DNA from: an uncultured Spirochaetota bacterium
GTDB lineage: Bacteria > Spirochaetota > Spirochaetia > SZUA-6 > Fen-1364
Direction of reading: 5' to 3'
NCBI GenBank assembly: GCA_963820525.1
Contig: CAWGAA010000001.1
Location: forward strand, 2,016,001 to 2,080,000
DNA: 64,000 bases
In this document: in pieces, positions 38,174 through 42,562 of the stretch
How positions within the stretch are numbered: position 1 is the first letter of the stretch
Layout of the letters: every line of letters begins with the position of its first letter
Notes under the pieces: generated by a model
Databases searched by the model: none
What the model was told of the DNA's origin: nothing
The model's input: the letters and a program-made list of their open reading frames with translations, nothing else
Program-made: the position numbers and the translations under genes

Positions 38174-39687
38174 GCCGGGCCGTACTTTTGCGCAGAATGC
38201 GGCCCCTGCTGGCTGCAGCTCTCCTCCTGGCCGGCCGCACGCTGCCGGCGCAGGCTCAGGCCTCCGATTCTCCGTCTGCCGGCGCGGTGCAGCCCGCTGA
38301 TTCCTCTTCTGCCGGCGCCATGCAGCCCGCGCCCCGGGAACTCGCGCTGTCCCTCCAGGAAGCGGTGCTTACGGCGCTCGAGCACAACCAGTCGCTTCGG
38401 GTCGAGCGTCTCGGGCCCGAGCTGAAGGCCACGAATCTGAAGGAGGAGGAGGGCGCCCTGGACCCTGTCCTGGCCGCGGATGCCGAGCAGATCGTTGCCG
38501 GCTCCCCGCCCGGCGTCTCGGCGGGCAGCGGCGCCGAGGCCGGCCTTTCCCTGAGCTTCTCCACCGGCACTTCGCTCAGCACCTCCGTGTCCGCCGGCTG
38601 GGGAGACTCGTGGGCGGCGGGAGCGGACCTCGAGGTGACGCAGGCCCTGCTGGCCGGCGGCAACGTGGCAGCCAACCGCGCGCGGGTGGAGCAGGCCCGC
38701 CTGGATCTCTTCTCCTCAAGGTACGAGCTTCGCGGCTTTGCGGAGTCTCTGGCTGCCGACGTGGAGTCCGCCTACTGGGGCCACTACCTCGCCCTTCGCC
38801 AGCGCGACATCTACCAGGAGTCCCTGGGACTGGCCGAGCGCCAGCTTGAGGAAGCCCAGGTCCGAATGCAGGTGGGGCGGATCGCGGCAATCGAGCTTGC
38901 AGCCCCGCGGGCGGAGGTCACCTCCCGCCGGGAGGCCCTGCGGCAAGGTGAAAAGAACGTGCAGTCCACCCGGCAGCAGCTGCTCATGCTGGTGAACCCG
39001 GCAGACACCGGCTTGGACTCCCCACTGCGGCTGGTGGACACGCCGGCACCGCCGACAGGCGCGCTGGGCGATGCCTCCGCGCACGTGTCTCTGGGCCTCC
39101 GCCAGAGGCCGGATCTCGCGCAGGCCCGGCTTGCCCTGCAGCGCGGCGAGCTTGAGGTCGTGCGCACCCAGGCAGGGCTCCTGCCCCGACTGGATCTTTT
39201 CGTGCGGCTGGGCGGCACGGGCTACGCCTCCTCTTTCGGCGGTTCTGTGGTCGGTATTGCCGATGAGCCGTATGCCAGCGCCGGCCTGAGCTTTTTGATG
39301 CCGCTGGGAAACCGCGCGGCCGAGGCGCGCGCCGAACGGGCCCGGCTGACCAAGGCGCAGGCCGATGAAGCCCTGAAGGGGATGGAGCGCAGCGTGGAGG
39401 CGGACATCAGAAACGCCTGGCGGGAGGCTGAGTTCTCCGCCGGGGGGATCGCGGCCAGCGCCGAGCTTCGCGGCCTGCAACAGGAGAAGCTTGCCGCGGA
39501 AGTGGAGAAATTCAGAAACGGCACCTCTACGACCTACCTGGTTGCCCAGGCCCAGCGGGACCTGCTGGCAGCCCAGCTGGGCGAGGCTCAGGCCACGGTG
39601 CAGTACCTCCTGGCGATGGTGACGCTCTACCGGCTTGAAGGCTCGCTTCTCGAGCGCAGGGGAATTGCCGCGGAACGGGTGGAATAG
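38170..39687 (+). CDS. TolC family outer membrane protein
   Basis: Signal peptide, LSLQEAVLTALEHN, LLPRLDL, follows the RND permease. Confidence 0.9.
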   Translation: MSRAVLLRRMRPLLAAALLLAGRTLPAQAQASDSPSAGAVQPADSSSAGAMQPAPRELALSLQEAVLTALEHNQSLRVERLGPELKATNLKEEEGALDPVLAADAEQIVAGSPPGVSAGSGAEAGLSLSFSTGTSLSTSVSAGWGDSWAAGADLEVTQALLAGGNVAANRARVEQARLDLFSSRYELRGFAESLAADVESAYWGHYLALRQRDIYQESLGLAERQLEEAQVRMQVGRIAAIELAAPRAEVTSRREALRQGEKNVQSTRQQLLMLVNPADTGLDSPLRLVDTPAPPTGALGDASAHVSLGLRQRPDLAQARLALQRGELEVVRTQAGLLPRLDLFVRLGGTGYASSFGGSVVGIADEPYASAGLSFLMPLGNRAAEARAERARLTKAQADEALKGMERSVEADIRNAWREAEFSAGGIAASAELRGLQQEKLAAEVEKFRNGTSTTYLVAQAQRDLLAAQLGEAQATVQYLLAMVTLYRLEGSLLERRGIAAERVE

Positions 39688-39688
39688 C

Positions 39689-39955
39689 TCAAAACCCTAG
39701 CCGTCCTGCTTTTTTCAAAGCCAACAAAGCATAGAGAGTCATCCACTTATTGGCGGCTCCACGATCGCCAACTTTCCACAGACACTGGGTTGGTGCCCAT
39801 TCCAGAATGAATCTTCCTTCTCTATCAGGAGCCTAGAAGCTTCCATGCACGATCAAGCCTTGGCTCATTCCCATATCCCATTCTGCTTAAATGGTACAGG
39901 ACTTCCACCAGGCCAGCCCGCCAGTGGAACGGAAATATCATTGTCTGAACGTCCT
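39689..39955 (-). pseudogene. 3' fragment of the IS110-interrupted gene, with an additional frameshift near 39828
   Basis: DVQTMIFPFHWRAGLVEVLYHLSRMGYGNEPRLDRAWKLLGS, then another frame DREGRFILEW...NKWMTLYALLALKKAGRLGF*; joins in frame with 41354-42043 when the IS is removed. Confidence 0.85.
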
Positions 39956-39968
39956 ACTATGATGCCCG

Positions 39969-41066
39969 TCAAGCAGGAATCTTCGATTCCTCCTCCGTCC
40001 CACGAATCCTCACCCAGTCTTTGAGTTTGCGCTGGTACAGTTGCTCCTCCTTCCATCGATACGGCGTGTTCGACAGCAGCATCCTGCGCATCATGCCAAA
40101 GGTCTTTCGCAAGACCGCAATTCGCGCTCGACCGTACCCTTTGCGTTGGACAAGCTCCCGGAAGAACTCTCCCAACAGCGGCGATGAATCCGCCAAGTGG
40201 AGCACAGCCTCGGTGAACAACGTGCGCGCCAGGCACCGACTGCGCCGATTCAGTCGACCCACGTGCGTGGTGCCTCCGCTGGAGCGCACAGTCGGCACCA
40301 CCCCCAGGTAAGCCAACAAAGCCCGCAGGCAGCGAAATCGGCGGATATCTCCGACCTCCGACAGAAACCCCAGCGCCAAGAGCGGAGTCACCCCGCGGAT
40401 CCCGATGAGCACCAGCACTTGCTGTTCGAAGGGCTTTCCCGCGCGGTAGATCTCCCGCTGCAGACTCTTCTTCTGCTCTTTAAGCTGGGCAAGAATCCCA
40501 AGGCTCATCGTGATGCTGAACAGACTGGCCGGGGAAAGCTCAAGGGCGGCAATCAGCTGCAGCCCCACCGTGGGATTGTCCACTATCCGGACGCCGAGCT
40601 TACGGTCAGTGATGCCATTCTCGACCAGCACGCTCTGCGCCTGCGCCTTCAATTGGCGGCTCTGATTGTTGAGAATCTGCCAGTGGGAGAACAGCCGCCG
40701 CAACTCCCGCACCTCAGGGGTCGGCTGCCAGACCTCGGGCAGCACCAGCTCCCCACTTTGAGCCGCTGTCCACAGCCCCAGCGACAGTGCCCCCGCATCA
40801 TGGCGATCCGTCTTGTGCCAAGAGTCGCGGATGATGCGAAACCGATACGGGTCGATGACGACGCAGCGAGCTCCTCGGCGCTGAATCCGCTCCGCCCACC
40901 AGAAGCTCCCAGAGCAGCTCTCCAACGCCACCGAGTCCTGCGGCCCAAGGGTCGCTACATAGCCGGCGGTCTCCACCCTGGCCAGATAGCGCACCTCATG
41001 GCCAGCCTCGTCGCGAATCGACACGGCGGCACTGCCTTTGTGTAGGTCAAGCCCGTGATACCTCAT
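39969..41066 (-). CDS. IS110 family transposase/recombinase (DEDD RuvC-like plus Tnp domain)
   Basis: GLDLH, ALE, KTDRHDA (DEDD); EVGDIRRF, AYLGVVPTVRSSGG (catalytic Ser); RBS GGGAGG. Confidence 0.95.
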   Translation of the reverse strand: MRYHGLDLHKGSAAVSIRDEAGHEVRYLARVETAGYVATLGPQDSVALESCSGSFWWAERIQRRGARCVVIDPYRFRIIRDSWHKTDRHDAGALSLGLWTAAQSGELVLPEVWQPTPEVRELRRLFSHWQILNNQSRQLKAQAQSVLVENGITDRKLGVRIVDNPTVGLQLIAALELSPASLFSITMSLGILAQLKEQKKSLQREIYRAGKPFEQQVLVLIGIRGVTPLLALGFLSEVGDIRRFRCLRALLAYLGVVPTVRSSGGTTHVGRLNRRSRCLARTLFTEAVLHLADSSPLLGEFFRELVQRKGYGRARIAVLRKTFGMMRRMLLSNTPYRWKEEQLYQRKLKDWVRIRGTEEESKIPA

Positions 41067-41074
41067 CAGTCCTC

Positions 41075-41337
41075 CCTTCGGCTCGGATCTCCACAGCGGA
41101 GGAGGAGACTCCCGTGAAGGCACTGATGGCTCCACTCTACTATCCAGCATCGCCTCTGGCGTGCTATGTTGGTGGTGCGAAACGGCGGTAGGTGGCCGGC
41201 CAAACTTGTTATCGTGGTCGTCGTTGACGCCACAGGACGTTGACGGCCATCTACCGCGCTCCTTTCCCCGCTCGGTACCGAGTTGTCACGCAGTATACAG
41301 CCACCCACCACCTCGTCCATCAAAGCCTTCTCGGCCG
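41075..41337 (-). ncRNA. Putative bridge RNA (seekRNA) of the IS110 element; ends approximate
   Basis: ~280-bp non-coding end with two stem/internal-loop hairpins whose loops match the target site (AACGTCCT, AACAAG) and the donor junction (ATAGTAG, CAAC). Confidence 0.8.
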
Positions 41338-41353
41338 ACGTGCATCATATCAA

Positions 41354-42043
41354 CTTGTTTACCAACTTCCGTGGATCCCTGCGTTTATAGATTCCTCCTC
41401 GATCAAGGAAGTATTCAATGAGACTGCGGCAGCTTTGATGCTTCCAGCACGTAGGCCCTATCTCGGCAAACGCTGCAAGCGCCTTGAATGATCCACGTAT
41501 GCAGCTCTTCGTCTTGTTTGGTTGGGCCTTGGGTTCATGCATTTCACAGAGATATCCACCATCGGCCCTTACTGATTTTTCAAGAAGTTCGATGCTGCGC
41601 TGCAGACGCGGGTCTTTTCGATAGCCCAGCATAATGAAGGTTCGGATGTTGTACCCGTACAGACAGGAGAAGTGCTTGTACCAGTCACCATCTTCTTGTT
41701 GGAGACCAAGATATCGCTCCGCGGCGAGCTCTACCTTTGGGTGCGTTCTATCAAGGCCAAGCTCCGCGAGATAGGCCAGGCAGAAGTGGGTTGTGGCAAA
41801 GCTGCCGTACTCCGCGCCGTCTCCGACCGTCTTCTGTGTCCTTGGATTCGTCTGCAGCCAATACCCTTTTGGATGCATTCTTTCGAATAGCCGAATCACC
41901 GCCGCCGATTGAGCGAGTTTTTGACGCGCTGCAATTACTTCTGGATTATTGGCAGGCACATCTGATAGTTCCGTCAGCGTCCGATATCTAGCGGAAGGAT
42001 CTGAGGGATCGAGAAGCCAAGTCAGTATCGGATTAGCTTTCAT
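41354..42043 (-). pseudogene. 5' part of an alpha-barrel (prenyltransferase/squalene cyclase-like) hypothetical gene interrupted by IS110
   Basis: WLLDPSDPSARYRTLTEL, QEDGDW, ADGGYLC; frame ends 3 codons inside the IS. Confidence 0.8.
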
Positions 42044-42468
42044 TTATCAGCTTTCGACCCGCGCATGTCCATCACCGCGCGGAGTATCGTCTTGGCAGCC
42101 TGGAATGAAGACTCATCTGTAACGATAACGCGTACAGCATACCCCTCGGGATGTTTCTTTGCGGATTCGATTTCCGCCTTGATCTGCTTTGGCAGCCGGG
42201 ACGCGAGGAGGCGCTCCCTTTCCTTTTCCCTCACCCCCAGGACGACGAGAAATGAACCTTGTGCGGGCGAAAGGTAAAACAGTGCCTTTTTCGTGTCGTG
42301 AACCTTGTACTGCCAGCCGTAGTTTTTCCCGTAGTATTTCCACTCCTGGGCATACCCGCGGGGTATGGCAACAAGCTGGGCGAACAATGAATGGGCGCCG
42401 CCAAGGATCTGCTTCACGTCTCTGTCGGTCGGCGCGTTGTCCTTTTCTCGAAACGAACTGCCTTTCAT
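42040..42468 (-). CDS. DUF3788 family protein
   Basis: EWKYYGKNYGWQYK..KKALFYL; ATGA-coupled to the downstream gene. Confidence 0.75.
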   Translation of the reverse strand: MKGSSFREKDNAPTDRDVKQILGGAHSLFAQLVAIPRGYAQEWKYYGKNYGWQYKVHDTKKALFYLSPAQGSFLVVLGVREKERERLLASRLPKQIKAEIESAKKHPEGYAVRVIVTDESSFQAAKTILRAVMDMRGSKADK

Positions 42469-42562
42469 TTTCCTCTCCACTCCGCCAATGATTACGACAA
42501 GTCCCGCGATTTTCAACCCTATTCTTGAAGAACGGCCGTCCGGCGGGTATTCTTAGAACTCA

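Follow-up and report, generated by a model that had tools for sequence, protein, structure and literature searches.

In IS621, the archetype of the IS110 group, and in other IS110/IS1111 elements, a sigma-70 promoter that spans the core is restored on excised circles, its -35 coming from the right end and its -10 from the left end (PMC11208160; PMC13626964; PMC12288879). According to the parts of these papers on which we draw (for IS621, Durrant et al. 2024, PMC11208160, and Nature 2026, PMC13626964; for ISPpu9 and ISPpu10, NAR 2025, PMC12288879), both the recombinase and the bridge RNA are expressed from this junction promoter, and IS621, while integrated, depends on weak read-through. Here we describe an IS110-family element on the minus strand of a 64,000-nt stretch of contig CAWGAA010000001.1 from an uncultured spirochaete (hereafter the window, numbered from its first letter), whose right and left ends, when joined through one copy of the core, read as a near-consensus sigma-70 promoter (Pjunc). 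Based on the sequence comparisons given below, we put the probability of this reading at roughly 0.85. A preliminary description of the locus, in which this promoter was proposed, had taken junction promoters on IS110-family circles as established, and in the portions of the literature used here they are indeed in print for IS621 and for other IS110/IS1111 members.

The Pjunc of ISEc11 and the circles of IS492 (IS1111/IS110 family) are reportedly further cases of a hybrid promoter or a circle formed from joined element ends. ISEc11 belongs to the IS1111 group and, as far as the source describes it, has its guide RNA downstream of tnp, unlike the element in the window (PMC12288879). The closer likeness is to IS621, which, in the published parts referred to above, shares with the window element a DEDD-type recombinase, a long left end with a bridge RNA containing target and donor internal loops, 2-nt cores, and a circle on which the -35 of the right end meets (in the window, would meet) the -10 of the left end, upstream of both bridge RNA and recombinase gene. 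The two differ in the core, which is CT in IS621 and AG in the window, and in the length of the structured RNA, which is 177 nt in IS621 and about 223 nt here; furthermore, the host of the window element is an uncultured spirochaete and its promoter is predicted from the sequence. ISPpu9 and ISPpu10 of Pseudomonas putida also belong to the IS110 family and are described as having AG at both boundaries (PMC12288879).

Sequence, geometry and conservation of the joined ends

On the minus strand the right end reads C-TTGACG-GGCATCATAGT-AG, ending at 39954 and followed by flank, and the left end reads flank-AG-TTGA-TATGAT-GC, with the AG starting at 41355. If the two are joined with one AG kept, the spacer between the hexamers TTGACG and TATGAT is 11+2+4 = 17 nt and the TGA preceding TATGAT provides the TGn of an extended -10. 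Each hexamer matches at 5/6 positions the sigma-70 consensus, which is assumed here and from which that of the host spirochaete may differ. The letters quoted in the preliminary description are all present in the window, including the overlap of the -35 with the transposase stop codon (TGA at 39971-39969, inside 39972-39967), and the promoter would point, as had been proposed, into a covariation-supported RNA and the transposase gene, both of which lie downstream. A -35 from one end and a -10 from the other are found 17 bp apart solely when the ends are joined. With the element integrated, no -35 ahead of TATGAT in the linear left flank of the window matches at more than 2/6 positions, and the corresponding match was 1-4 of 6 in 11/11 copies of the element.

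These copies were obtained by searching with the element and its flanks in 41 genomes, including the window's own, of which 18 gave matches. Twenty loci were returned; L002 is the window itself, and L007, L012, L013, L014, L015 and L016-L019 were left out as flank-gene or partial matches. The 11 copies examined were the window and L003, L004, L005, L006, L008, L009, L010, L011, L020 and L021, and a separate search of genome contigs for related loci gave 2 loci. The genome of the window itself carries a single copy of the element at the DNA level. The arrangement TTGACG-17-TATGAT is kept in all 10 copies that have a findable terminal right end, and these represent 7 guide sets; in L008 a terminal right end was not found within 500 nt. 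The surrounding bases vary, with GGC, ACC, CGC or TCG after the -35 and TTGA, TCGT, TTGT, TTCT or TTTT as the four bases after the core. A more distant relative, L025 (46% amino acid identity), has a GG core and reads TTGACG-16-TATGAT. In a still more distant family in genome G321 (27% amino acid identity; L029, L035 and L038), TATGAT and ATCATA occur near the ends; a -35 of at least 5/6 at 16-18 bp was not seen in these loci, and their core could not be fixed.

The position of the -35 across the stop codon could be thought to account for its conservation. In L005, L009 and L010, however, the working right end lies about 240-300 nt past the stop codon and still reads GCTTGACGCGCATCATAGTAG, keeping the -35, the spacer and the core letter for letter, whereas of the 4 copies with an old inner right end at the stop, 2 (L005 and L010) no longer have TTGAC there. 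Since the outer right ends keep TTGACG far from the stop and the inner ones decay, the stop codon does not by itself explain why the -35 is kept.

As hexamers are matched permissively, a chance resemblance with no function was weighed against the frequency of such sites. The 64-kb window contains 4 sites in 128,000 strand positions at which both hexamers match at no fewer than 5/6 positions with a spacer of 16-18. For the roughly 84 placements that straddle a given junction this corresponds to about 0.003 expected, and a composition model gives 0.0004. With an expectation of 0.0004-0.003 per junction, and with the arrangement present in 10/10 copies from 7 guide sets and again in L025, mere coincidence is hardly credible.

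The following cycle is proposed. The recombinase and the bridge RNA would excise the element as a circle, in which a single AG links the right end directly to the left end. The right-end TTGACG would thereby be placed 17 bp upstream of the left-end TGnTATGAT, giving the near-consensus sigma-70 promoter, and a transcript would start near 41336-41339 and run through the bridge RNA into the transposase gene, until reintegration splits the promoter again. Transcription from the junction, its start site and the formation of circles in this organism are what we infer from the sequence. In the contigs of the four public sequencing runs described below a joint of right end to left end was not seen; contigs drop rare forms, so this result is neutral. 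The occupied allele is best represented in runs X1 and X2, and none of the runs listed was of RNA.

The ends that enter the junction could be fixed without recourse to the promoter. The element is bounded by two AG dinucleotides, at 41355/41354 and 39955/39954, so that 39954-41355 is the span with both core copies and 39956-41353 the element proper, of 1398 bp. Its right end extends just 13 nt past the transposase stop codon and its left end comprises 287 nt. L003 (G019:C7), an 89% copy, aligns exactly to 41359..39954 of the window. Contigs (Logan) from four public runs, X1, X3, X4 and X7, were compared with window positions 39200-42100. One contig of X4 (record 17; 1005 nt, depth 11.6) passes directly from 39953 to 41354, so that 1400 bp are absent and 2 letters can be assigned to either side, and one contig of X3 (record 9) stops at 39955 and goes on with TGTTTACCAAC, which is window 41356-41366. 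These two contigs are empty sites with a single CT/AG. More contig breaks were found at 41359 (four in X3 and two in X7, with differing continuations) and before 39948 (X3 and X4), which indicates that AACA+AG on one side and AG+GACGTT on the opposite side are common to other insertions. Because of the empty-site contig, the intact allele of the interrupted gene and the match of guides to flanks, the ends are confirmed as exact and the core as 2 nt at the level of sequence, and the ends and core that had been predicted in the preliminary description were borne out. A single short core lies on either side, the empty site has one core, and a long target duplication is absent. Together with the type of transposase and the bridge RNA, these features place the element in the IS110 family, and it is an apparently intact IS110-group insertion sequence that interrupts a gene of its uncultured spirochaete host.

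The bridge RNA and the internal promoter-like site

The left end is long and non-coding. Ten left ends could be aligned, with conserved stems and variable loop segments, and in the structure given by RNAalifold long-range helices enclose two stem-loops, which contain internal loops. Over the 69 pairs of this structure, 95% of cells are paired as compared with 35-57% in slid-partner controls, and compensatory changes are found at 10 pairs as compared with 1-3 in the slid controls. The alignment suggests that the left end encodes a covarying bridge RNA with target-binding and donor-binding loops. Rfam gave 0 matches in window 39000-42500 at E <= 1.

The guides were located by the rules described for IS621 in the part of that report used here (PMC11208160), as the segment before GTGGC (right target guide, RTG) and the segment before TYTGGC (left target guide, LTG). 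The former ends in CT and the latter in AG, in 11/11 cases each, so the core is included in the guides. Guides matching both target and donor are present; the terminal 11 nt of the right end are the left donor recognised by the left donor guide (LDG). For 7 representative copies the guides match their own flanks at 69/98 non-core positions, whereas 1854 derangements gave 26.8 on average and 36 at most.

The structure also bears on where transcription begins. Helices 1 and 2 of the bridge RNA begin at 41334 and 41312, and the RNA must therefore start upstream of TGGACG-16-TATACT (41319-41292), a promoter-like site inside the left end. This would fit a start set by the junction -10, as a start about 7 nt past the -10 (41336-41339) falls just ahead of helix 1, by three to five bases. 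The internal site matches at 9/12 positions and is the sole promoter-like site in the linear region, and its TATACT is invariant in 10/10 left ends; it could in principle be the main promoter, active also when the element is integrated, with the junction adding little. However, shuffled sequences contain a mean of 0.7 such sites, so that one is expected, and the TATACT block lies within helices 2 and 3 of the conserved RNA, which accounts for its invariance. A start downstream of the site would, moreover, remove the 5' strands of helices 1 and 2 (41334-41299), and in other lineages the -35 position reads TGATCA, a match of 3/6. We regard the internal site as a very improbable main promoter.

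Promoter or recombination signal

Several observations weigh against a junction promoter. First, ISPpu9, which has the AG boundary too, was shown to form no hybrid promoter and its tnp gene has its own promoter, Ptnp, as reported in the part of the study used here (PMC12288879); family membership is therefore no guarantee of a hybrid promoter. The comparison is one of description and not of sequence relatedness, and the window element differs from ISPpu9 in having a hybrid promoter close to consensus and lacking a convincing internal promoter. Second, 3/10 copies (L003, L005 and L020) match their own right target guide at 1/7 positions each. L005 fits at a 1-nt offset and L020 with an extra TAG, and the right flank of L003, AGTCGTTGA, agrees more closely with the right target guide of the L010 type (AGTCGTTGC) than with that of L003 itself (AGGACGTTG), with the left target GACATAACA+AG being common to L003 and L010. 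Third, a contiguous site of right end, core and left end was found 0 times in the loci examined. Fourth, TATGAT belongs to one arm of an 8-bp subterminal inverted repeat (TATGATGC / GCATCATA, the latter arm at 39965-39958 within the terminal 11 nt of the right end) and adjoins the bases of the right donor. Its invariance may be due to recombination, and its conservation is therefore not independent proof of promoter function. Finally, the sigma-70 consensus has been assumed for an uncultured spirochaete. As a separate observation on one of these copies, the transposase frame of L003 is broken, with no open reading frame (ORF) over 320 aa.

Some of these points would be accommodated if the hexamers were conserved as recombination signals, either as a subterminal inverted repeat or for donor recognition by protein or RNA, with the promoter likeness incidental and expression provided, as in ISPpu9, by an internal promoter or by read-through from the host. 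Both arms of the inverted repeat that contains TATGAT are conserved, and in the lineage of the window the repeat reaches imperfectly into the GACG of the -35. Read-through is possible because the element is co-oriented with the interrupted gene. For the same reason the claim that the promoter is assembled only after excision holds in part: it stands for the hybrid promoter, and it does not extend to expression, as the integrated copy need not be silent.

The inverted repeat does not, however, explain the -35, because left ends of the L006 type do not mirror TTGACG. The spacing of 16-17 bp and the hexamers at 5/6 are also retained down to 46% amino acid identity and across the change of core from AG to GG. 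Moreover, 11 nt separate the -35 from the core, which places it outside a 22-bp donor, and the -35 of IS621, at a comparable distance, is described as lying outside the 22-bp minimal donor (PMC11208160), a further likeness between the two elements. Conservation as recombination signals only is for these reasons considered unlikely, though it deserves more weight than the internal site or coincidence, and a near-consensus sigma-70 promoter at the junction is the preferred reading.

The transposase, the interrupted gene and the right-end modules

The coordinates of the element and of the gene that it interrupts are collected in Table 1.

Table 1. Features of the element and of the interrupted host gene, with window positions
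Feature	Position	Strand	Basis and remarks
IS110-family transposase / bridge recombinase, 365 aa	39969..41066	-	NF033542, PF02371
-35-like hexamer TTGACG in right end	39972-39967	-	Contains transposase stop TGA 39971-39969; identical in 10/10 terminal right ends and L025
Right end, terminal 11 nt GGCATCATAGT, upstream part of junction spacer	39956..39966	-	
AG core, right-hand copy (CT on + strand)	39954..39955	-	Sequence; empty-site contig joint 39953->41354, 2 ambiguous letters
AG core, left-hand copy	41354..41355	-	Sequence, relatives, empty-site contig
-10-like hexamer TATGAT in left end	41349-41344	-	Invariant in 10/10 aligned left ends; part of inverted-repeat arm TATGATGC (41349-41342)
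Bridge RNA (predicted)	41112..41337	-	Structured part 41334-41112; 5' end predicted near 41336-41339 from -10 position
Right target guide (RTG) CAACGTCCT	41234..41242	-	Reverse complement of AG+GACGTTG (AGGACGTTG); flank AG+GACGTTC (AGGACGTTC), 6/7 non-core positions
Left target guide (LTG) GATAACAAG	41205..41213	-	Flank GTAAACA+AG (GTAAACAAG), 5/7 non-core positions
Left donor guide (LDG) GATAGTAG	41137..41144	-	Matches right-end terminus ATAGT+AG
Interrupted host gene, N-terminal 230 codons	41354..42043	-	~319-aa hypothetical-protein family; weak squalene-hopene-cyclase-like match
Interrupted host gene, continuation, 42 codons DVQTMIF...KLLGS	39828..39953	-	Cut short by 5-nt deletion 39827/39828 vs intact allele

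The ORF at 39969..41150 on the minus strand is the sole IS110-type ORF between 39954 and 41355. Its real start is the ATG at 41066 (MRYHGLDLHK), which has AAGGGAGGA just before it and is common to the relatives. The protein matches the NCBIfam model NF033542 (IS110 family RNA-guided transposase) with 186.4 bits (cut-off 140) over model positions 2-342 of 343 and Pfam PF02371 with E 8e-15, and the match to the N-terminal Pfam PF01548 is weak (E 0.0037, 17.5 bits vs a cut-off of 29). Residues D7, E49, D87, D90 and S262/S263 are invariant across 8 related proteins and fit what we take to be the DEDD-plus-Ser catalytic pattern of IS621. IS110-type transposases combine a DEDD N-terminal domain with a C-terminal Tnp domain that has a catalytic Ser, and the model matches and residues given above agree with this architecture. 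The protein differs from that of IS621 in being too distant for a phmmer match to solved chains, and a phmmer search of PDB sequences gave 0 matches at E <= 0.01.

A conserved hairpin was found at window 41072-41108 (minus strand), in which TCTCCT is paired with the transposase Shine-Dalgarno sequence GGGAGG (helix 8, with 88% of its cells paired and changes confined to one side), and its position suggests translational masking of the transposase start. The genome of the window also contains a second, degenerate IS110-type gene (L033; G000:C1:1654900-1655931), with 43% amino acid identity and one in-frame TGA. The match begins at residue 18, a recognisable right end, GCTTGACGATCATCATAGTGG, is present, and a left end was looked for at this locus and not found.

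The host gene is interrupted by the element in the same orientation. An intact 319-aa allele, P0001, shows 99% identity over the 230-codon query and is continuous across both window fragments (...RKLVNK|DVQTMIF...). In the window 5 nt (GCCTT on the + strand) are missing at 39827/39828, and these are present in the empty-site contigs of X3 and X4. The loss shifts the frame and stops the reading after KLLGS, and P0001 continues 47 residues further. Because of the insertion of the element and the frame shift from the 5-nt loss, the gene as read from the sequence is a pseudogene twice over. At E <= 1e-10 no orthologue turned up in 91 further genomes from the order, and matches were obtained only in a large protein collection. 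On the 5' side of the interrupted gene, window 42040-42516 (minus strand) encodes a DUF3788 protein (PF12663, E 3e-20) with a 4-nt overlap with the start of the interrupted gene, and the two are therefore probably co-transcribed towards the element.

In the three copies whose working right end lies far from the stop codon (L005, L009 and L010; e.g. L009:1142-1404:-), an extra module of about 240-300 nt is located between the decayed inner and the exact outer right end. The module is hairpin-rich, with a long hairpin (z = -2.96); it had no Rfam match in L005, L009 or L010 and was not found in the genome of the window. In L010 the right end is tandemly duplicated, with two copies of GGCTTGACGCGCATCATAGTAG 19 nt apart, and in a contig of X7 position 39988 is followed, after an intervening TCTA, by a return to 39954, as if the right end of the window's element had been duplicated in a similar way. 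The copies with a module resemble the variants of ISPpu9 that are described as having an extra module (ssr9) on the downstream side, with a second right end as its boundary (PMC12288879). Right-end duplication and module capture may be a recurrent by-product of bridge recombination well outside Pseudomonas, with selection tracking the -35 at the right end that is used for circle formation; we offer this tentatively, as a possibility somewhat short of even odds. If true, the capture of modules would parallel the ssr9 hitch-hiker of ISPpu9, and the relatives could be read as an experiment of nature on the junction promoter.

A promoter assembled at the junction is the expected arrangement and ordinary for the family, and knowledge of the family is unchanged by it. 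What the locus offers is a cleanly delimited bridge-RNA element with an AG core, natural target sites, an empty-site allele and relatives with reprogrammed guides, which adds an annotated orthologue to those available for work on bridge recombinases and helps in annotating this genome.

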